Positions 2,519-62,968 of a DNA stretch of 64,000 nucleotides are shown one piece after another. Numbering within the stretch: the stretch's first letter is position 1; every line of letters starts with the position of its first letter. The stretch is from Parcubacteria group bacterium. Lineage in GTDB: Bacteria; Patescibacteriota; Minisyncoccia; Moranbacterales; UBA2206. A program made the translations under genes and the position numbers. The notes below the pieces were generated by a model. It saw only the letters and a list, made by a program, of their open reading frames with translations, did not search any database and was not told where the DNA came from. The stretch covers positions 4,939 to 68,938 of the forward strand of contig JBAYLE010000001.1 of the NCBI GenBank assembly GCA_041664225.1, given 5' to 3'.

Positions 2519-4420
2519 ATGTCGCTATCGGAAATAAAAAATAAACTATATTCAAAAGAAAAGGATGAAGACTTGTCACGACATAGTCAGAACGAGTTTG
2601 ATATCCAGGCTGCCATAAAAAAAGAGCAACCAGTCGTGTCCGGTGGCGATGTTTGGGAAGAAAGAAGTAGCGGATTGAGTAGCGAGCAAAAAAAAGCTTT
2701 TAAAATAGGCGCCTGGGCGGTTGTCGGAATTATTATTTTAACACTAGCGGTTTTTGGTATTTATAGATATATGCAATCTGCTTTCACGGAAGAGAGAGTG
2801 ATAACTAAAATTGATGGACCGGCTAGCGTTTCGAGCGGTGAGTTGCTGACATATGAAATTAGTTATACAAATAATAATCGAGTGGCACTTTCGGGCGCGA
2901 TTGTCCGGATTACTTATCCGGAAAGTTTCAAACCGGGGGAAAATACTAATTTTAAAATCGAAGGCCAAACAAGTGGAGTTTTCACAATCGGAGATATCTC
3001 CGGAAATAGCGGTGGCAAAGTTATTTTGAACGGAAATGTTTATAGCCCAAAAGGAACATTGATGTATATAAAAACCGATTTGATTTATACGCCTTCCAAC
3101 TTTAATAGCCAATTTGACTCCAAAAACCAGATGGGTGTTAATGTTAATACTTCACCCATCGATTTGGAAATTTTAGCGCCACAAAAAATATCTAGCGGAG
3201 ATTCAGTAGATTACCAAATAAACTATACCAATACTGGGAAGGAAGATTTTGATAATATTAAAGTGAGAGTTGAGTATCCGGATACTTTTATTTTTTCCCG
3301 AGCAAATCCGGCGGCTTCTGAAGAAAATAACATTTGGTATATTGGGCATCTGGCAGCCGGCCAATCAGGGAAAATTGTAGCCAGTGGCAGGCTTAATGGC
3401 GGCCGCGATGAAGTGAAAAATGTCAAAGCTTTTATTGGTACAAGCTACCAGACTCAGTTTGTCGGTTATAGCGAAGAACAGACTTCAACTGCGATGGTGG
3501 TACCGCCGATTGAAATTACCCAGTCGGTCAATGGTTTGAACGAGTATGTTACCAAATCTGGAGATAATCTGATGTTCCACATAACATACAAAAATAATGG
3601 GGATATAGACCTGAGAAATGTTGTTTTGAACGAGAAAATAGACAGTCCGATTCTGGATTATGCTTCGCTAACTCTGAAAAAGGGGGCGTTTGACCAAAAT
3701 AGCCATATGATTACATGGAAGGGCGTAGACGACCCGTCTTTAAAAAATTTGGCTGCTGGCCAGTCCGGGAAAGTCGAATTTTCTATCAAAGTCAAAAATG
3801 TGATACCGATAACGACCGCCAATGACAAAAATTATGTGATTTCGGCCACCGCCAAAATAGACAGTCCTGACATTCAGACTCCGATTAACTCCAATAAAAT
3901 TGTTTCCGGAAATAATATTGATATAAAGTTGAATTCAAAACTCGTATTTGACATGAAGGGATATTATAATGATTCGGCAATTTCTAATTCAGGGCCTATC
4001 CCTCCGAAAGTTGGCGTGGCAACCACTTATACTATCCACTGGAAAGCTATCAATGTCTCTAACGATATAAGCGACGCTAAGGTAAGCGCGACTCTGCCGA
4101 CGGGGGTAACGATGACGGGCAAAATTTCTCCAGATGACGGCAAATTAACCTATAATTCCAGAGACAACAGCGTGCTTTGGGATATCGGGAATATTCCAGC
4201 CGGAACAGGAATACTTAATGCTCCATTGGAAATTGCTTTTCAGGTGCAAGTGACGCCGGCGCTTAATCAACTTGATAATGAAGTGATTCTGGTCAACCCG
4301 GTGACTTTTTCCGCTAAAGATTTATTCACTGGCAATAATCTATCGGTATCTACGGAAAAGAAAAGCACTCTCTTGATTGAGGACGCAGGTATCGGCACAG
4401 GCTATAAGGTGGTTAATTAG
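2519..4420 (+). CDS. Large membrane-anchored surface protein with DUF11-like repeats
   Basis: One TM helix near aa 65-85, then repeated motifs of the form xxYxNxGxxxxxNVxxxxxxP (ISYTNNNRVALSGAIVRITYPESF, INYTNTGKEDFDNIKVRVEYPDTF, ITYKNNGDIDLRNVVLNEKI). These resemble DUF11 repeats of CPR/Gram-positive surface proteins. Confidence 0.55.
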   Translation: MSLSEIKNKLYSKEKDEDLSRHSQNEFDIQAAIKKEQPVVSGGDVWEERSSGLSSEQKKAFKIGAWAVVGIIILTLAVFGIYRYMQSAFTEERVITKIDGPASVSSGELLTYEISYTNNNRVALSGAIVRITYPESFKPGENTNFKIEGQTSGVFTIGDISGNSGGKVILNGNVYSPKGTLMYIKTDLIYTPSNFNSQFDSKNQMGVNVNTSPIDLEILAPQKISSGDSVDYQINYTNTGKEDFDNIKVRVEYPDTFIFSRANPAASEENNIWYIGHLAAGQSGKIVASGRLNGGRDEVKNVKAFIGTSYQTQFVGYSEEQTSTAMVVPPIEITQSVNGLNEYVTKSGDNLMFHITYKNNGDIDLRNVVLNEKIDSPILDYASLTLKKGAFDQNSHMITWKGVDDPSLKNLAAGQSGKVEFSIKVKNVIPITTANDKNYVISATAKIDSPDIQTPINSNKIVSGNNIDIKLNSKLVFDMKGYYNDSAISNSGPIPPKVGVATTYTIHWKAINVSNDISDAKVSATLPTGVTMTGKISPDDGKLTYNSRDNSVLWDIGNIPAGTGILNAPLEIAFQVQVTPALNQLDNEVILVNPVTFSAKDLFTGNNLSVSTEKKSTLLIEDAGIGTGYKVVN

Positions 4421-16867: not shown

Positions 16868-16968
16868 TAATTTTTGATAATCTTGACTTTTTTCGGTTTT
16901 CGAGAGAGAATAAATAGCGAGGATGTGAGCCCAATATTATTGAAAAAGGCTTGCAACTCGTGTTTTTT

Positions 16969-17190
16969 ATGGTTAATAAGGACCAAAATGAAAAGCCCTG
17001 GAGCGCTCTCGGATTCGCCTGGCAACTGGGATATTCGATAGTTATTCCAATTGTTGTTTTCGCGCTGATCGGAAGACTGCTCGACAAAAAACTGGATACC
17101 TCGCCATGGCTTCTGCTTTTGGGAATTCTGATTTCGATTATTGTGACGACGGTGTTAGTGTATCAAAAGACGATAAAAATAATGAAATAG
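16969..17190 (+). CDS. atpZ: ATP synthase protein I / AtpZ-like small membrane protein
   Basis: Two-TM-helix protein immediately upstream of atpB. ATG at 16969 (the ORF-finder start at 16951 is TTG). Confidence 0.55.
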   Translation: MVNKDQNEKPWSALGFAWQLGYSIVIPIVVFALIGRLLDKKLDTSPWLLLLGILISIIVTTVLVYQKTIKIMK

Positions 17191-18314: not shown

Positions 18315-18800
18315 ATGGAATTACTTACAAACCTAGGAATCAACGGAAAATTATTAATCGCGCAGATCATTAACTTTTTGATCTTGCTTTTTGTGCTGCA
18401 TCGTTTTGCATACAAACCTATTCTCAAGATGCTCAATGACAGGACGAATAAAATTGAAAGGGGTCTGAAAGACGCGGAAGAATCTCACAAAAAATTGGCG
18501 GAAATCGCGGAGAAAGAGAAAGAAATTCTGGTGAAAGCTCGCAAAGAAGCGCAGGAAATTCTCAAGAAAACTGAAGATATGGCCAAAAAATCCAAAGATG
18601 AAATGGCGCAGGAAGCTAAGACGCAGGCGGAAAAAATAATTTCTGACGCCAAGGCGAGCATCGAATCGGAAAAAACCAAAATGCTCCGCGAAGTTAAAGC
18701 GGAAGTAGCGGAGTTGGTGGTTATGGCGACAGAGAAAGTTATTGGTGAGAAAGTAAATTCAGCTAAGGATAAAGAATTAATTAAAGAAGCGATCAAATGA
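18315..18800 (+). CDS. atpF: ATP synthase Fo subunit b
   Basis: N-terminal TM helix followed by a long charged helix. Position in the operon fits. Confidence 0.75.
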   Translation: MELLTNLGINGKLLIAQIINFLILLFVLHRFAYKPILKMLNDRTNKIERGLKDAEESHKKLAEIAEKEKEILVKARKEAQEILKKTEDMAKKSKDEMAQEAKTQAEKIISDAKASIESEKTKMLREVKAEVAELVVMATEKVIGEKVNSAKDKELIKEAIK

Positions 18801-19198
18801 AAATAACAGCGATACAATACGCAAATACCCTGTATGAATTAACTGATGGAAAAACCAAGCAAGAGGTTGATGGTGTTGTCGCTGGTTTCTTGAAAGTCTT
18901 GCGGAAAAACAATCAGCTAAAAATGGCAGGAAAAATAATTGAAAAATTCAGTAATTTATATAATCAGAAAAATGGAATTGTGGAAGCGGAGGTTACGAGC
19001 CGGGAAGCGTTGAGCAAGGATGTAGGTAATAAATTACGTAATTATGTAAGTACCAAATACAAAGCAAAAGAAGTGGTGATAAAGAATAAAATTGATGAAG
19101 GCATAAAAGGCGGAATAATCATTAAGGTTGGAGATGAGATAGTTGATGCCAGTATTTCAGGAAAGTTAAGAAGTTTAAAAAGTTCTTTGGAAAAATAA
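18797..19198 (+). CDS. atpH: ATP synthase delta subunit (short OSCP)
   Basis: Operon position and OSCP-like N-terminal domain. Only 133 aa. Confidence 0.6.
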   Translation: MKITAIQYANTLYELTDGKTKQEVDGVVAGFLKVLRKNNQLKMAGKIIEKFSNLYNQKNGIVEAEVTSREALSKDVGNKLRNYVSTKYKAKEVVIKNKIDEGIKGGIIIKVGDEIVDASISGKLRSLKSSLEK

Positions 19199-19258
19199 AA
19201 AAGCCCGTGGTGCTCGTTGAGTATTTAAACTCATTGAGTCCGCTGACGGCTTATAAGG

Positions 19259-19471
19259 TCACGGTCTAATAAATTTTCTCAGGAATACTGCTCCATAGAC
19301 TATCCCCGTGATTCCAATTATTCCCCATATTACCTTTACATATCCGGGGCTTATATATGGGTTTACTGTCAAACTAAGGCATAGTATGCCCAAAATAATC
19401 GGGCAGAAAGAATATGCTATTCCAACTTTCCTTAGCCATTGCATAAGAGCCTCTAATGTTTTTTTCTCCAT
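19259..19471 (-). CDS. Small membrane protein (70 aa, 2 TM) antisense to the atp operon, with its own promoter and SD
   Basis: On the minus strand: TTGACA, 17 nt, TATACT, then AAGGGGG 5 nt before the ATG. K/R-rich termini with a hydrophobic core. Confidence 0.5.
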   Translation of the reverse strand: MEKKTLEALMQWLRKVGIAYSFCPIILGILCLSLTVNPYISPGYVKVIWGIIGITGIVYGAVFLRKFIRP

Positions 19472-19512
19472 TTGTCCCCCTTTTAGATTTTCGTTGAGAT
19501 CTAAGACTTTGT

Positions 19513-19541
19513 AGTATATATCAAAACGGGGAAGTTGTCAA
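19513..19541 (-). promoter_or_regulatory. Near-consensus sigma70 promoter (TTGACA-17-TATACT) driving the 70-aa antisense gene
   Basis: The reverse complement of 19513-19541 reads TTGACAacttccccgttttgataTATACT. Confidence 0.6.
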
Positions 19542-19547
19542 GGCTCC

Positions 19548-19629
19548 TACAAAATTACAAATAAAGTACAAATATACAAATGTGAATTAAAAAATATTTG
19601 TAAATTTGTAAAAGATTTGTAGATTTGTA
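19548..19629. repeat. Long imperfect inverted repeat: four TACAAA units, a 16-nt spacer, then four TTTGTA units (33-nt arms, 26/33 complementary)
   Basis: tacaaaattacaaataaagtacaaatatacaaa ... tttgtaaatttgtaaaagatttgtagatttgta, immediately upstream of atpA. Confidence 0.7.
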
Positions 19630-19660
19630 GGGATCTTAACTAAATTTATTTCACAATTCT

Positions 19661-21235
19661 ATGTCAAACAAGGATTACATTATCGACCAATTGAAAAAAC
19701 AAATTGAAGGCTTTGAGGCCAAGACGAAAACCGAAAAAGTCGGGGTCGTGTTGGAAGTGGGGGACGGCGTGGCGCGAATTTCGGGATTGTCGGACATTAT
19801 GGCTTCGGAGATGGTAGAGTTTATTCCATCACACGAAAAAGAAGCTAAGCCTCTCTCGACCGAAACGACCAAAAGAAGCTTAGCTTCTGAAAGCGTTTAC
19901 GGCGTTGCTCTTAACTTGGAAGAAGACAGAATTGGAGTCGTGGTTTTGGGCGACGACAAAGGCATCAAAGAAGGCGACACGGTCAAAGCCACAGGCAGAA
20001 TTCTTTCTGTGCCGGCCGGAGAGAATATGATCGGCCGAGTCATTGATCCGTTGGGACAAGCGATTGACGGCAAAGGCGAAATCAAGACGGAAAAATTTTA
20101 TCCGATTGAAAAAATCGCGCCGGGTGTTATTACCCGCCAATCAGTCAATCAGCCGGTGCAAACCGGCATCAAGGCCATTGACGCGGCGATTCCGATTGGA
20201 CGCGGGCAGCGCGAACTTATCATTGGCGATCGCCAGACTGGAAAAACCGCCGTGGCGATTGACACGATTATCAACCAAAGAGGCCAGGACATGATTTGCA
20301 TCTATGTTGCCATTGGCCAAAAAGAATCAAAAGTAGCGCGTATTGTGGCGGAACTTTCAAAAAGAGGCGCCATGGATTATACGATCGTGGTAGTGGCGGG
20401 TGCATCTGATCCAGCGGCGTTTTCCTATATCGCTCCGTATTCCGGTTGCGCGATTGGTGAATATTTTATGGATCAGGGCAAAGACGTATTGGTGATTTAT
20501 GATGATTTGTCCAAACACGCTTGGGCGTATCGCCAGATGTCGTTGATTTTGAAACGTCCGCCGGGACGCGAAGCCTATCCGGGAGATATTTTCTATCTGC
20601 ACTCACGTTTGCTTGAAAGAAGTGCGAAACTTAACAAGGATTTTGGCGGGGGATCACTCACAGCTCTCCCCATCATTGAAACACAAGCCGGTGATGTTTC
20701 GGCTTACATTCCGACTAATGTTATTTCCATCACCGATGGACAAATATATCTGGAAGCGGATTTATTTTACAAAGGTATCCGTCCGGCGTTGAATGTTGGA
20801 CTTTCAGTTTCCCGCGTAGGATCAGCCGCGCAGATCAAAGCGATGAAAAAAGTGGCGGGAAAATTACGTTTGGATTTGGCGCAGTTTCGGGAACTTGAAG
20901 CTTTCGCCCAATTTGGATCAGACCTTGATGAAAAAACCCGAATGCAAATTGAAAGAGGAAGGCGAACAGTAGAAATTCTGAAACAAGACCAATATTCACC
21001 GATGGCGGTCGAAAACCAAGTAGCGATTCTTTATGCTTTGACTCAAGGATTTATGGATGACGTGGCGGTGGAAAAAGTGAAAGCTTGGGAAAATGATTTT
21101 CAAAAATTCATGAAGACAGAAGGAAAAGTTGCACTGGCGGCTATCGCGGAAAAGAAAGAGTTGTCTGATGATGTGGTCGCAAAATTGGAAAAAGCTATCA
21201 AAGAGTTTAAAGAAATTTACCAAAACGGGAACTAA
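19661..21235 (+). CDS. atpA: ATP synthase F1 alpha subunit
   Basis: Walker A GDRQTGKT and alpha-type C-terminal domain. Confidence 0.9.
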
Positions 21236-22201: not shown

Positions 22202-22202
22202 T

Positions 22203-22240
22203 TTTTTAAAAAAAATGCTGGGAATCAATAGACGCCCAGC
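22203..22240 (-). terminator. Rho-independent terminator for the 80-aa antisense gene (gctggg/cccagc stem followed by a T-run on the minus strand)
   Basis: Minus strand reads gctgggcgtctattgattcccagcattttttttaaaaaac. Confidence 0.55.
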
Positions 22241-22261
22241 GAGAGTCCGGAGTCTGATAGG

Positions 22262-22504
22262 CTAATGGCCGTCATCAGTTGCGAACTTCTTAATGTGTGT
22301 TAGTTTGAAAACCCTCATCATGGTATTGTGTGACAGCTGTTCCTTGGTTTCTTTTTTAATTCTCCCAAGGCTCTCCTTGTCAACATATATTATTTCGATA
22401 GGAGCATCCTTATCATCATTGCTTCTAATCTCGATAATATGTGTTGCTGAGCGTGGCAAGCACTCATATCTAATCCCATTCCATTGTACGCTTAACCAAA
22501 CCAT
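22262..22504 (-). CDS. Orphan 80-aa soluble protein antisense to the atp operon (MVWLSVQWNGIRYE...)
   Basis: Preferred start is the ATG preceded by AAAGGAGGTG. The longer ORF-finder start is a TTG lying inside the -10 box. K/E/D-rich composition, unlike the opposite-strand shadow ORF. Confidence 0.5.
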   Translation of the reverse strand: MVWLSVQWNGIRYECLPRSATHIIEIRSNDDKDAPIEIIYVDKESLGRIKKETKEQLSHNTMMRVFKLTHIKKFATDDGH

Positions 22505-22566
22505 CCTTATCCACCTCCTTTGTTTATCCTTGTTATCGCAAAATGTAGGATTTTTACTAACTCTCA

Positions 22567-22595
22567 ATTATACTCCAAACCATCCCAAAAGTCAA
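22567..22595 (-). promoter_or_regulatory. Consensus sigma70 promoter TTGACT-17-TATAAT for the 80-aa antisense gene
   Basis: Reverse complement reads TTGACTtttgggatggtttggagTATAAT. Confidence 0.65.
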
Positions 22596-22644
22596 GCGTT
22601 GAGTTGTGATCAGTAAATATTGCCTAAATTAAGCCAATATTTAG

Positions 22645-24099
<1,455 letters not shown>

Positions 24100-24130: not shown

Positions 24131-24586
24131 ATGATAAATTTATTTCTTGAAACCATATCTGCGGTTGTAGAGAATCTAGAACCTATATTAGTTTTACTAC
24201 TGCCAGTGTTGGTTATTGCGCTTGTATTTTTTTCATTCATTTCTAATTATTTGATTAATAAAATTACAAAGAATATATACAAAAATAATTTTTTATTTGA
24301 TTATTTAGCATGTATCATTTTCCTTGCTGTACTCGTAATTTTTAATAGTATACTGATTATTGTCGCAACTGATGATAATTTAAAAATTTCTTCGGTAATT
24401 ATTATACCAATCGTTTCTGCAATTATTTATTTAATTTTTAAATATTATATTTTAGTAAAAATTGGCAAAAAGACATTTTTAGATATGGCGATTAGCGCAC
24501 TGTTTGATTTCATAGCCATAGCAGCTGGCATTTATATTATAGGATTAATTTTTGATGCAGGAATGTCAGCGGGTGGTTTTGCTTAA
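24131..24586 (+). CDS. Ile/Leu-rich 4-TM membrane protein inserted between atpD and atpC; GC far below that of its neighbours
   Basis: 151-aa ORF, locally about 28% GC versus about 42% in the flanks. No intergenic space to atpC. Confidence 0.5.
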   Translation: MINLFLETISAVVENLEPILVLLLPVLVIALVFFSFISNYLINKITKNIYKNNFLFDYLACIIFLAVLVIFNSILIIVATDDNLKISSVIIIPIVSAIIYLIFKYYILVKIGKKTFLDMAISALFDFIAIAAGIYIIGLIFDAGMSAGGFA

Positions 24587-59426: not shown

Positions 59427-60650
59427 TCACAGTATGACCGTTTTCGCGCCGAGAGGAAGAGTTCCAGGAAGGAGCTTTTCCTTGTGCACAATTGATGGTT
59501 TTACCCGGACGCATTTTGGAGCTTCCAATATGCGTCCTTGGCCGGGTCTTTTGCGAAAAGTTCCGCTGCGGAAGTGGAAACACTTCTCGCCACCGCCACC
59601 TTTTCGGCTATGGCGGATCATTTCTGCCAGCTGTCTGTCTCTCCTGTCCAGATAATTGGTGAGATCGAGGACAAAAAGTTGTGAACTATGGGTAATTGCT
59701 TTTTTATTATTGATTTTGTCTCCAATGATTGACTTCCATTTTTCCGGTCTTGAGTAATGAAGTGATGGAAGAGTGTTGAGATATTGGCAGAAGCTGATTG
59801 CCAAATGTCTGGCTTTTTCAAGGATGGAATATCTCATAAATTTATCCTCGGTGTCTGTGGAACTAGCTGCCAAATCTATCCCTCGTTCAGCACCGAAGAC
59901 TTCCAAGCGTTGATGGAAATCTTTGAAACTTTCCGTAAGAGGCGTATCAACCGGAGTGCTGCTTTGATCCGATTTTTCAAAAACCGTAAAGAATGAGTCC
60001 ATATATGCTATTCCCATGGTGTTAATCTTATGAAACAATTTTTCCATATATGGATATCCACGCTTTCTGATCATCTTTGGAATCACTCCCATGTCTTCCT
60101 TGGAAAGCATCCGGTATTCATCTAACTTTTTCGAAAATGCCGAGATACTTATAAAATCATTTCCTTCCAGATCCGGAATACAATCGCTGATATTACTAAC
60201 CAGTAGAAAATCAAATTCATTTCCTTTTTCATCAGTAAGTGGCTCTCCCAATTCGATGCCGAACGAGCGCAATGGCCAGTCGATATCTTCCCAATCTGTC
60301 CCCTTGAGCGATGTCGCGCTCAGAATCGTCTGGAGGTCGGCGGGGACATGGAAGACTCTTCTGGAATGTCTGGTCCAGGCGAAGAGATCCGGAGGCAATG
60401 ATCCCAGATGCAATAATTCTGACCAAGTGCCGATCGAGCCGGAAAAACGATCTTGATCAAAAGGTCCATTGAGGCTTTGCATAAGATGGTCTCGAAACTC
60501 TGGTGCGTGAAGCAAGGGGCCCTCAATGGCGCGAGGAATCTTATTCTTGAATTGTGGAAAAGCTTCCCAATAGGTTCTGAGAATAAAACAAAAATCTTCC
60601 CAAAGCCTTAACGCTTGCTCTAGACGAAGAACATGTTTGCCTTGTGGCAT
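59427..60650 (-). CDS. Hypothetical 407-aa protein, GC-richer than its surroundings; no recognisable motif
   Basis: Long ORF with protein-like composition. About 45% GC versus about 40% in the flanks. CTG/CCG codons are used, unlike the host genes. Confidence 0.5.
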   Translation of the reverse strand: MPQGKHVLRLEQALRLWEDFCFILRTYWEAFPQFKNKIPRAIEGPLLHAPEFRDHLMQSLNGPFDQDRFSGSIGTWSELLHLGSLPPDLFAWTRHSRRVFHVPADLQTILSATSLKGTDWEDIDWPLRSFGIELGEPLTDEKGNEFDFLLVSNISDCIPDLEGNDFISISAFSKKLDEYRMLSKEDMGVIPKMIRKRGYPYMEKLFHKINTMGIAYMDSFFTVFEKSDQSSTPVDTPLTESFKDFHQRLEVFGAERGIDLAASSTDTEDKFMRYSILEKARHLAISFCQYLNTLPSLHYSRPEKWKSIIGDKINNKKAITHSSQLFVLDLTNYLDRRDRQLAEMIRHSRKGGGGEKCFHFRSGTFRKRPGQGRILEAPKCVRVKPSIVHKEKLLPGTLPLGAKTVIL

Positions 60651-60821
60651 AAGTTATCCTTTCCTGCGGCTGTATTTTTAAAGAAAAACAACTGATGAAA
60701 GAGTATAACTCCAATTTGGTAATTTGTCAATATCCATCAAAAATACTTGCATCTTTTGTAAGATTTTGCTAGAAATATGATAGTACAAAAAAGAATAATT
60801 TTTTGGAAAGGGGGGTGTTTT

Positions 60822-61196
60822 ATGTCAGAAGCCATCACATTCAACGCCAAAAACATTAGAGCACAGGATTTAGGTGAGTTGCTTAGCGCTTCAATGATGA
60901 TGTTGACGGGATTAGCCTGGAGAACAACTGTTGTTACGGATGAGCTGGTGGCCGAGATAGATCGCATGAGAAACTCAGTTGTACGCAAAATGAATCCGCG
61001 GATCTGGGAAAAATATCCCGGCGTCTGGTTCACCGCCAAAGTGACGACTGCCGAAGTGGATGCGCAAGAGATCATTTTTATTATGCTGGATGATGATTTG
61101 TCATCATCGGCAGCGAACAGATCTTTCTCAATGATGGAAACGATGGAACAACCCGAAGAAGATCCTTTTTATGTCAGTATCGTTTCCTTGAATTGA
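60822..61196 (+). CDS. Hypothetical 125-aa protein (start preceded by AAAGGGGGGTG)
   Basis: ORF with a strong SD, divergent from the 407-aa gene. Confidence 0.45.
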   Translation: MSEAITFNAKNIRAQDLGELLSASMMMLTGLAWRTTVVTDELVAEIDRMRNSVVRKMNPRIWEKYPGVWFTAKVTTAEVDAQEIIFIMLDDDLSSSAANRSFSMMETMEQPEEDPFYVSIVSLN

Positions 61197-61213
61197 GGGA
61201 GTATGCTGATGAG

Positions 61214-61254
61214 CTAGCCGGGCTAGTTTATAACCCGGCTAGTTTTTTTATTTT
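61214..61254 (+). terminator. Rho-independent terminator (ctagccggg/cccggctag stem plus T7)
   Basis: ctagccgggctagtttataacccggctagttttttt. Confidence 0.65.
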
Positions 61255-61277
61255 CTGATTCGGGTAGAGACGGGCGA

Positions 61278-61306
61278 TTGACAGAGTCTTTAAAATGAAT
61301 TAAAAT
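61278..61306 (+). promoter_or_regulatory. Sigma70 promoter TTGACA-17-TAAAAT for the 92-aa ORF
   Basis: ttgacagagtctttaaaatgaattaaaat. Confidence 0.55.
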
Positions 61307-61338
61307 TTATTCATAACATCAAAGATAAGCATATTTTT

Positions 61339-61617
61339 ATGTTTGATAAAAAACTCAAAGAGGCGCTGGAGCTTTTGGGCGGGAAAGCGATTTTGAATGA
61401 CGAGCAACAGTATTATGTCGTGATGACTTTAAAAGAATTTAAGAAAATGAAACAGGATGGCGTTGAGGGCTTGACAAAGCAGGAATTGGTTGATAAGATT
61501 AACAACGATATCGCCATTTGGAAAGTTTCTCAGGAGGATGAAGAAATGGCCATAAAGATGGAAGAATTGGAAGAGAGCGAGCCGGAAGAAATCCATTACG
61601 AAAAACCGGTGGCTTGA
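61339..61617 (+). CDS. Hypothetical acidic 92-aa protein
   Basis: ORF with its own promoter. E/D-rich C-terminus. Confidence 0.4.
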   Translation: MFDKKLKEALELLGGKAILNDEQQYYVVMTLKEFKKMKQDGVEGLTKQELVDKINNDIAIWKVSQEDEEMAIKMEELEESEPEEIHYEKPVA

Positions 61618-61618
61618 C

Positions 61619-61627
61619 TTATCCACA
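61619..61627 (+). promoter_or_regulatory. Perfect DnaA-box 9-mer TTATCCACA, 13 nt upstream of the tuf -35
   Basis: gacttatccacaggag. Confidence 0.4.
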
Positions 61628-61639
61628 GGAGTTCAGTAC

Positions 61640-61668
61640 TTGCCAAGATTTGGAATACATAGTACAAT
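61640..61668 (+). promoter_or_regulatory. Sigma70 promoter TTGCCA-17-TACAAT for tuf
   Basis: ttgccaagatttggaatacatagtacaat. Confidence 0.55.
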
Positions 61669-61774
61669 AATTTTTGTAATATAAAGTAATTAAATAATCT
61701 ATTAAAATTCGCAAATTTGCGGGTTCGGTGTTTTTTAATTCCGACGCTAACTTGCGAAAATAAAGCAAAAAAAT

Positions 61775-62968
61775 ATGGCAGCAGAACAATTTCAAAGAAC
61801 CAAGCCGCATGTAAACGTAGGAACCATTGGACATGTTGACCATGGAAAAACTACCTTAACTGCAGCGATTCTCCATGTCCTTGCGTTTAAGGGACAAGCC
61901 AAAGAGAAGGGAATCGATGAAATCGACAAAGCCCCGGAAGAAAGAGAGCGCGGTATTACCATCGCGACCGCTCACTGTGAATACGAGTCTGACAAAAGAC
62001 ATTATGCTCACGTAGATTGTCCGGGACACGCTGATTATATCAAAAACATGATTACGGGTGCCGCTCAGATGGATGGCGCTATTCTTGTGGTAGCCGCGAC
62101 TGACGGTCCGATGCCACAGACCCGCGAACATATCCTGTTGGCAAAATATGTAAATGTACCGGAAATCGTAGTCTTTTTGAATAAGGTGGATATGGTGGAT
62201 GATCCAGAGCTGATTGATCTGGTAGAAGCGGAAGTTCGTGAACTTTTGACTAAATACGAATTTGATGGTGACAACGCGCGGATTATCCGTGGTTCAGCGC
62301 TGAAAGCTTTGGAGGCTAAATCAGTTGATGATGAAGCAGCGAAGCCAGTTTGGGAATTAATTAAAGCGTTGGATGAAAAAATCCCGGAACCGATGCGTGA
62401 AATCGACAAGCCATTTTTGATGCCGATCGAAGACATTTTTTCAATCGAAGGCCGCGGAACAGTAGTAACAGGCAGAATTGAACGCGGTCAAATTAGTGTC
62501 AATGAAGAAGTTGAAATCGTGGGTATCCGCCCGACAACCAAAACAACTGTGACCGGAATTGAAATGTTCAATAAATCTCTGGATAAAGGGATGGCTGGGG
62601 ATAATGCCGGTGTCTTGCTTCGTGGTACCAAGAAAGAAGATGTTGAAAGAGGCCAAGTTTTGGCAAAACCGGGAACAATTACTCCGCACACCGAATTTGA
62701 AGGTGAGGTTTACATTTTGACCAAAGAAGAAGGCGGAAGGCATACCCCTTTCTTTAAGGGCTACAAACCTCAATTTTATGTTCGAACTACGGATGTAACT
62801 GGTGAAGTTATTTTACCGGAAGGAACTGAAATGGTAATGCCGGGAGACACCATCAATCTTGCTGTCAAACTAATGGCTCCTGTGGCTATGGAAGAAGGAA
62901 TGAGATTTGCAATTCGCGAAGGCGGCCGCACAGTGGGTGCTGGTGTTGCAACCAAAATCATAAAATAA
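61775..62968 (+). CDS. tuf: Elongation factor Tu
   Basis: [22 protein letters not shown] and NKVD. Confidence 0.95.

Follow-up and report, generated by a model that had tools for sequence, protein, structure and literature searches.

A probable clade-specific hotspot of antisense gene insertion between atpH and atpA in a Moranbacteria ATP synthase operon

Why does the ATP synthase (atp) operon of a Moranbacteria chromosome carry, on its opposite strand and between the genes atpH and atpA, a small open reading frame (ORF) with what looks like a promoter of its own? The locus lies in a stretch of 64,000 nucleotides from a Parcubacteria group bacterium (contig JBAYLE010000001.1, positions 4,939 to 68,938; hereafter the window), where the gap between the two genes measures 462 nt and holds a minus-strand ORF of 70 amino acids. 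Patescibacteria have tiny genomes, and gene-sized insertions in the ATP synthase operon would therefore not be expected to be tolerated. From comparison with related genomes, we regard this gap as probably a clade-specific hotspot of insertion, occupied by an autonomous antisense cassette in which a conserved chassis carries interchangeable orphan cargo, in a manner resembling the morons of phages; on this reading, the location of the cassette does not follow from a role in the ATP synthase. The coordinates of all features are collected in Table 1.

Conserved promoter and leader before unrelated ORFs

The evidence that carries this reading is the contrast between what is conserved at the junction and what is not. 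Between the window and one relative, locus L008, the segment containing the leader hairpin, the promoter and most of an adjoining palindrome (window 19492-19615; L008 3918-4040) was 90% identical, and the segment containing the end of atpH and the terminator hairpin (window 19181-19253; L008 3097-3169) was 94.5% identical, compared with 80-87% for the flanking atp genes. Between these two blocks there was no detectable similarity: the window has 238 nt (19254-19491) taken up by a Shine-Dalgarno (SD) sequence and the 70-aa ORF, and L008 has 748 nt with two other ORFs. Across the cassette-bearing genomes the promoter, leader hairpin and terminator were 80-94% identical, a conservation equal to or above that of the atp genes, and the promoter was found at 80-90% identity in five other genomes with its position and orientation kept. 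Using nhmmer and alignment, copies of the promoter-leader module were located before unrelated ORFs in L008 (two full copies and one without the -35 element, the latter belonging to a 61-aa unit that directly follows the preceding ORF), L009, L012 (two copies) and L015, while the module occurs a single time in the 64 kb of the window. The shared form reads TTGACA-N17-TATAC[A/T]T, ACAGAGTC, a stem-loop with the loop CAACGA and then GGAGG, and the leader is about 35 nt long. In each cassette an ATG is preceded at 4-9 nt by GGAGG or GGGGG (GGAGG in the cassettes of the relatives), and the ORF spans the interval from promoter to terminator. Since the promoter and leader are conserved and are reused before unrelated ORFs, the promoter appears to be real in a comparative sense and the ORF to be a swappable cargo.

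The sequence-only reading of this DNA had described TTGACA, a 17-nt spacer and TATACT on the minus strand, and these elements were present as described; the AAGGGGG motif that it placed 5 nt before the ATG was also present, but at a spacing of 4 nt. It had further proposed that the promoter should be taken as coincidental if the ORF proved not to be conserved. This rule fails at the locus, as the ORF was found in no relative and yet its promoter and leader are conserved and reused. Sites matching at least 11 of the 12 positions of the sigma-70 consensus numbered nine on both strands of the window (128 kb in all), of which seven were intergenic and some lay just 5' of long ORFs, and the two best promoter sites of the 8.4-kb atp region were those preceding its two antisense ORFs. 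Two more near-consensus promoters were observed in a 1.1-kb gap at 60650-61775, at 61278 (+) and 60730 (-); one of them (TTGACA-17-TAAAAT) precedes an SD and an 80-aa ORF, and the other (TTGACA-17-TATACT, the hexamers of the cassette promoter) precedes a 407-aa minus-strand gene.

The alignment of eight cassette leaders revealed an invariant CA.CG core. In single-sequence folds, five of the eight formed a clear hairpin at this place, with arms that differ between leaders (AGAT/ATCT, GAAT/ATTT, AGATTTT/AAAATCT), and RNAalifold returned no consensus structure on the gapped alignment because of the indels in it. There was no Rfam match in the 16-26 kb part of the window at E values up to 1, and no exact match in IMG/VR to two degenerate promoter/leader patterns.

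The atpH loci of relatives were fetched over a range of AtpH identity to the window, and four contigs (P0005, P0006, P0016 and P0018) were compared by their gene tables only. The two genes are spaced by 5-28 nt in L003 (AtpH 72% identical), L007 (69%), L004 (52%) and the P0016 contig (74%), a close spacing that we take to be ancestral. All nine relatives with AtpH identities of 77-88%, as well as L015 (74%), had an insertion at the atpH-atpA junction, and on this comparison the hotspot appears to be restricted to one small Moranbacteria clade. The inserted ORFs were mostly on the minus strand, 40-113 aa in length and mutually unrelated. In L009 and L010/L011 the AtpH protein is identical and the DNA is 99.7% identical up to a sharp breakpoint, after which the ORFs of 83 aa and 95 aa are unrelated. 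Small membrane or secreted proteins made up about half of the cargos, and soluble ones were also present. Apart from a 434-aa AAA_14/DUF4143 ATPase (L002 6890-8194; L012 8890-10194), which matched the PADLOC defence candidate PDC-S01 (E 1.6e-118), no cargo protein had a family match; the PDC-S01 match indicates that the hotspot can hold larger accessory or defence genes. When the cargos were compared with one another by all-against-all BLASTP and by Smith-Waterman alignment with shuffles, nothing convincing was obtained, the 70-aa protein included, the best pairs being the 71-aa ORF of L015 with the 85-aa ORF of L008 (z 3.8) and the 70-aa protein with the 97-aa ORF of L016 (z 2.4, a common GIIGIT motif). 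Just 5' of atpH, L016 (43-324) and the P0018 contig (223-525) contain small GIY-YIG and DUF559 (endonuclease-like) ORFs, which have the look of mobile genes and may be further insertions in the atp operon.

If the cassette functions as its layout suggests, the near-consensus sigma-70 promoter would drive the leader with its stem-loop, the SD and the ORF toward the atp operon, and the hairpin and T-run, the latter complementary to the final codons and stop of atpH, should bring antisense transcription to an end at that stop codon. The 70-aa gene would then be a strain-specific accessory gene, sited by a hotspot of recombination or insertion rather than by an ATP synthase function, and the cassette would presumably be dispensable. 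On the plus strand, the hairpin 3' of atpH was predicted to fold as RNA at -22.9 kcal/mol (z -2.2) with no U-tract after it, and no promoter-like site with more than 8 of 12 consensus matches was found 5' of atpA, so that atpA is probably transcribed by read-through across the cassette. Such read-through would meet a strong promoter head-on and would produce RNA complementary to the mRNA of the ORF.

Table 1. Features of the antisense cassette and its surroundings, with the insertions found at the atpH-atpA junction of relatives. Positions are those of the window unless a locus is named; percentages in brackets give AtpH identity to the window.
Feature	Position	Strand	Description or evidence
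atpH (F1 delta subunit, 133 aa)	18797-19198	+	TIGR01145, 76.4 bits vs cutoff 57.5; 5' flank of insertion
17-nt core GTTCTTTGGAAAAATAA	19182-19198	+	Last codons and stop of atpH; repeated at cassette junctions of relatives
Terminator-like imperfect hairpin, then T-run TTTTTTATTTTT	19250-19203 (hairpin); 19202-19191 (T-run)	-	Starts nine nt after the ORF stop
70-aa ORF	19471-19259	-	Orphan small protein, two predicted helices; ORF list, hydropathy, AlphaFold
Shine-Dalgarno-like AAGGGGG	19482-19476	-	4 nt (ACAA) 5' of ATG 19471-19469
Leader stem-loop TTAGAT / ATCTAA	19483-19504	-	Conserved loop motif CAACGA; leader alignment, folds
Sigma-70-type promoter TTGACA-17-TATACT	19541-19513	-	11/12 consensus; -35 at 19541-19536, 17-nt spacer, -10 at 19518-19513
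86-nt palindrome of TACAAAT repeats (CCTAC...GTAGG)	19546-19631		Inverted repeat between cassette promoter and atpA
Palindrome copies in relatives	L008 3973-4040; L007 3210-3295 and 3930-4015; L015 about 3331-3415; L016 about 866-950
atpA (F1 alpha subunit)	19661-21235	+	TIGR00962, 798 bits, above cutoff; 3' flank of insertion
atpG-atpD antisense cassette	22202-22674	-	TTGACT-17-TATAAT, AAGGAGGTG, 80-aa soluble ORF, then hairpin and T-run
Insertion, P0005 and P0006 contigs (88%, 85%)		-	113-aa ORF
Insertion, L008 (84%)			ORFs of 61, 47, 85 and 72 aa (-); 132-nt atpH 3' duplicate; 203-aa ORF (+)
Insertion, L002/L012 (83%)			92-aa signal-peptide ORF (-); 434-aa AAA_14/DUF4143 ATPase (+); 158-nt atpH 3' duplicate; 90-aa ORF (-)
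Insertion, L009 (83%)			118-aa ORF (+); 83-aa ORF (-)
Insertion, L010/L011 (83%)			Same 118-aa ORF as L009; then 95-aa ORF (-)
Insertion, L016 (80%)			97-aa ORF
Insertion, P0018 contig (77%)			53-aa and 40-aa ORFs
Insertion, L015 (74%)			71-aa two-helix ORF

The 70-aa ORF and its predicted protein

The minus-strand ORF named in the sequence-only reading was recovered at the same position with an identical translation. In shuffles of the 462-nt gap, an ATG-initiated ORF of at least 70 aa appeared anywhere in the gap in about 3.5% of cases, and only about 0.4-0.5% of simulations kept the frame from the SD-proximal ATG free of stops over 70 codons; per cassette, the chance of such a frame staying open was 0.04-2.4%. 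With codon log-odds trained on the 33 long ORFs of the window, the ORF's own frame scored 0.05, the best of the six (the other five ranged from -0.16 to -1.2); when 70-codon windows of real genes were scored out of frame, only 0.2% reached this value. The plus-strand GC skew was negative across this ORF and the second antisense ORF of the operon, as expected for minus-strand genes, and the GC content of the ORF was 38%, with 34% for atpH, 46% for atpA and 41% for the window.

Hydropathy analysis of the 70-aa protein showed hydrophobic segments at about residues 16-38 and 44-65, a short NPYISPGY loop between them and basic termini, and a single-sequence AlphaFold model placed two helices, at 3-35 and 42-68, on either side of a loop (mean pLDDT 77.6). 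Both agree with the earlier description of a hydrophobic protein with two transmembrane segments and charged ends. In the membrane the protein would, by prediction, form a hairpin of two helices, and because both termini are positively charged, these would be expected to face the cytoplasm.

The protein matched itself alone in a word-indexed search of 5.8 billion proteins, and a HMMER search of 1.84 billion representatives returned the protein itself and two marginal matches (E about 1e-4), which fell in short stretches of 735-aa and 391-aa proteins and were treated as similarity of hydrophobic composition. It had no match in Pfam, NCBIfam, PHROGs or PADLOC, neither protein nor DNA had a match by tblastn or blastn in the phage and plasmid collections, and a Foldseek search of the model against the Protein Data Bank (PDB) gave generic helical hairpins only, all with E > 1. 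Homologs beside the atp genes of relatives, which the sequence-only reading had proposed to look for, were sought by tblastn in all fetched loci and in the window itself, and none was found. We consider the ORF a plausible, though unproven, gene for an orphan membrane protein of two helices, to be treated with caution, and nothing so far ties it to toxicity or to the ATP synthase.

Competing explanations of the antisense unit

Several observations weigh against the hotspot reading. The minus-strand terminator hairpin is weak (-14.7 kcal/mol, z -1.45) and was not called by a simple terminator scan, and the codon score of the ORF lies only at the 2nd percentile of real-gene windows. The ORF is known from one organism, and as the sole other copy, on contig L001, is 100% identical in DNA, it gives no measure of purifying selection on the protein. 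Firing of the promoter and translation of the ORF are predictions from the sequence, and the word moron is an analogy, given that the unit sits in a chromosomal housekeeping operon and had no phage or plasmid match. In addition, a conserved chassis with a non-conserved cargo is also what would be expected if antisense transcription or the regulation of atpA were the conserved function. In that event the promoter or its transcript would tune or uncouple the expression of atpAGDC with respect to atpBEFH, and the ORF would be incidental; promoter and leader are indeed 80-96% conserved before unrelated downstream ORFs, the arrangement repeats at two atp junctions, and with no good plus-strand promoter before atpA the atp polymerase would probably cross the cassette head-on. 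We nevertheless judge this unlikely, as an SD, an ATG and a unit-filling ORF were found in every cassette, which is very improbable by chance. The terminator in each unit is placed to stop transcription before atpH, so that any antisense effect would be confined to the cassette, and the insertion-free relatives keep the same atp gene order without such a unit.

Somewhat less likely still, in our view, is a type I toxin-antitoxin (TA) system in which the 70-aa protein damages membranes and its translation is checked by an antisense RNA, possibly the atp read-through. The small hydrophobic protein with charged ends, the strong promoter and the potential overlap with an antisense transcript are as in type I systems, the plus-strand hairpin after atpH without a U-tract would allow atp RNA to pair fully with the ORF mRNA, and several other cargos at the junction are small membrane proteins. 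The type I toxins Hok, Ldr, Ibs, TisB and Fst, however, usually have a single helix and fewer than 60 aa, whereas this protein has two helices in 70 aa, a discrepancy in length that the sequence-only reading had itself remarked upon. The likeness to membrane-active toxins that it drew from size and hydrophobicity gained nothing from the searches, which gave no toxin-family match in Pfam, NCBIfam, PHROGs or PADLOC, and no plus-strand promoter-like site of at least 9/12 was found in 19199-19545 for a dedicated antisense RNA. The leader stem-loop precedes the SD, and no obvious SD-sequestering structure was seen. Sister cassettes carry soluble and secreted, non-membrane cargos in the same chassis, and the chassis is therefore not toxin-specific. 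Coincidence of a chance ORF with a chance promoter in AT-rich DNA would fit the lack of homologs and the share of gap shuffles that yield a frame of this length, but we think it very improbable given that five other genomes have kept and reused the promoter, which is one of only nine near-consensus sites in both strands of the window, that the SD stands at the right place, that the open frame has a simulated chance of about 0.4% and that none of the other five frames has a higher codon score. Just as improbable is a lineage-specific accessory or assembly subunit of the ATP synthase, similar to AtpI or AtpZ: the ORF does sit within the atp operon and its two-helix membrane hairpin is of subunit-c-like size, but it lies on the opposite strand with its own promoter, the closest relatives carry unrelated ORFs in its place, and it did not match ATPase_gene1, for which the operon already has an ORF (16951-17190). 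A role of this kind is excluded by non-conservation, and a subunit-c paralog was rejected because the 70-aa protein is not similar to the window's subunit c.

Cassette arrays, known systems and other insertions in the operon

The hotspot reading leaves the route of entry to be considered, on which the junctions of the relatives bear. The 17-nt core at the end of atpH has a single copy in the 64-kb window, two copies in L012 and three in L008; in L010 and L016 it is found at a distance from the end of atpH, and it is at the core that L009 and L010 diverge. In L008 three units stand in tandem, and each has the core at its end with an AT-rich module (98-nt repeat, 91% identical) before it. Its minus strand runs from promoter and leader through the ORF and the terminator to TTTTT-CCAAAGAAC, which is the end of atpH in reverse complement, and from there through an AT-rich palindromic module to the next promoter. 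The longer atpH 3' duplicates of L002/L012 and L008 are kept at the atpA-proximal end of the array. This array structure was seen in relatives only, and the window has a single unit. Such a pattern would be expected if new units repeatedly entered at the atpH 3' end via recombination in the core, and unequal homologous exchange between strains would also yield it. A bolder possibility, which we hold only tentatively and lean against, is site-specific cassette capture by an undescribed system in Patescibacteria, with the 3' end of atpH as attachment site and units integrating as circles, core by core. Each small unit would then comprise core, terminator, ORF, leader, promoter and palindromic module, the shared promoter-leader chassis would make any captured ORF expressible, and integron-like tandem arrays would be built inside the essential atp operon by a recombinase that is encoded elsewhere or is a host enzyme. 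No recombinase domain was found among the genes called within 8 kb on each side in L012 or in the other loci examined, and the flanks in the window are syntenic.

Among known systems the moron comes closest to our preferred reading of a hotspot with interchangeable cargo, a concept due to Hendrix and colleagues. A phage moron is a gene with its own promoter and terminator, located between genes that are adjacent in relatives, and moron hotspots hold different morons in different genomes (PMC2920897). The cassette resembles it, as judged by sequence, in being one gene, equipped with a promoter and a terminator of its own and placed between genes that adjoin in relatives, in the presence of different units at one hotspot in different genomes with cargo that is often of unknown function or defence-related, and in its presumed expression independently of the surrounding operon. 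It differs in its residence in a bacterial chromosome, inside an essential housekeeping operon and in antisense orientation, in a promoter, leader and terminator common to units with unrelated ORFs, and in tandem arrays that end in a copy of the atpH 3' end. Three of four moron features are present or plausible and phage residence is not, so that the cassette may be said to work like a moron without being filed as one.

The arrays of the relatives also recall integron cassette arrays and attC clusters without integrase, with small ORFs in the same orientation arranged in tandem at one fixed site, a repeated junction formed by the 17-nt core and the AT-rich palindromic module before it, hairpins bounding each ORF, and mostly orphan small cargo with fast turnover between strains. 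Integron cassettes, however, are normally promoterless, whereas most of these units have their own TTGACA-17-TATAC[A/T]T promoter; their 3' hairpins vary between cassettes, carry T-runs and look like intrinsic terminators rather than attC; and it is a protein-coding gene whose 3' end forms the 'attachment' sequence. An integron array was not adopted, as the flanks examined have no integrase and the units have promoters of their own. Variable accessory genes between the same two core genes, including the PDC-S01 candidate in L002, are also typical of hotspots and islets of horizontal gene transfer (HGT), but here the insertions interrupt an operon instead of lying between two, the units measure only 0.3-0.7 kb and the expression chassis is shared. 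The literature on the Moranbacteria ATP synthase operon and on small or hypervariable proteins of Patescibacteria yielded nothing relevant.

Taken together, one Moranbacteria clade would have, at two or three junctions of its atp operon, small genes that vary between strains, drive their own expression and face the transcription of that operon. If this is true, the locus offers a concrete place to study the gain and exchange of small orphan proteins, of which many are membrane proteins, together with a portable promoter-leader module, probably functional in these uncultivated organisms, and a natural example of head-on transcription in an essential operon; should the exchange prove site-specific, it would represent a new kind of cassette system.

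The sequence-only reading had counted two antisense cassettes within the operon, which is correct; the other one lies between atpG and atpD, with a promoter at 22595-22567 and an ORF at 22504-22262. The block at 22558-22674, made up of its promoter and the upstream region of atpD, shared 96% identity with L012 and 95% with L007 and was more conserved than the atp genes, and the antisense ORFs at this junction in L012 and L007 (57 aa and 137 aa) were unrelated. The atpG-atpD junction of L012 also contains a HIT-family gene. Between atpD and atpC, the window has a plus-strand ORF of 151 aa with multiple predicted helices (24131-24586), very low GC (22-28%) and no family match; as atpD and atpC are adjacent in L012, it looks like a third insertion in the operon, co-oriented with it.

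The 86-nt palindrome next to the cassette promoter would form a hairpin of -36 kcal/mol (z -8) and is the only TACAAA cluster in the window. It belongs to a family of six copies in five genomes at four positions of the atp operon, in which respect it resembles miniature inverted-repeat transposable elements (MITEs), repetitive extragenic palindromic (REP) sequences and Correia-type elements. The L008 copy is placed as in the window, the copies of L015 and L016 lie directly 3' of atpH, and those of L007 are found on both sides of its atpG-atpD insertion. The direct repeat TTAAGAAAGT, possibly a duplicated target site, borders the copies of L015 and L016 on both sides. From its distribution, the palindrome seems to behave like a small mobile palindromic element travelling with the insertions.

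The operon stands in a Moranbacteria chromosome context with MetRS and TatD, and nearly all long ORFs of the window are on the plus strand. Its order is the ATPase_gene1 ORF, atpB, atpE, atpF, atpH, the gap with the cassette, atpA, atpG, the second gap, atpD, the 151-aa ORF and atpC. On contig L001, which is identical to the window DNA, Pfam OSCP is recorded for atpH. AtpH is short: of the 179 positions of the delta-subunit model its alignment covers only 53-178, the usual N-terminal part being absent, and the AtpH proteins of the relatives all have this same short length. AtpA in the window, L008, L009 and L012 has a variable in-frame insertion of 12-23 aa after 'EMVEF' (about 19826-19895 in the window), which is missing from AtpA of L003, L004 and L007. 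The DNA of the window's insertion is a palindrome with a 20-pair stem (hairpin 19843-19885), reminiscent of the in-frame palindromic elements of Rickettsia.

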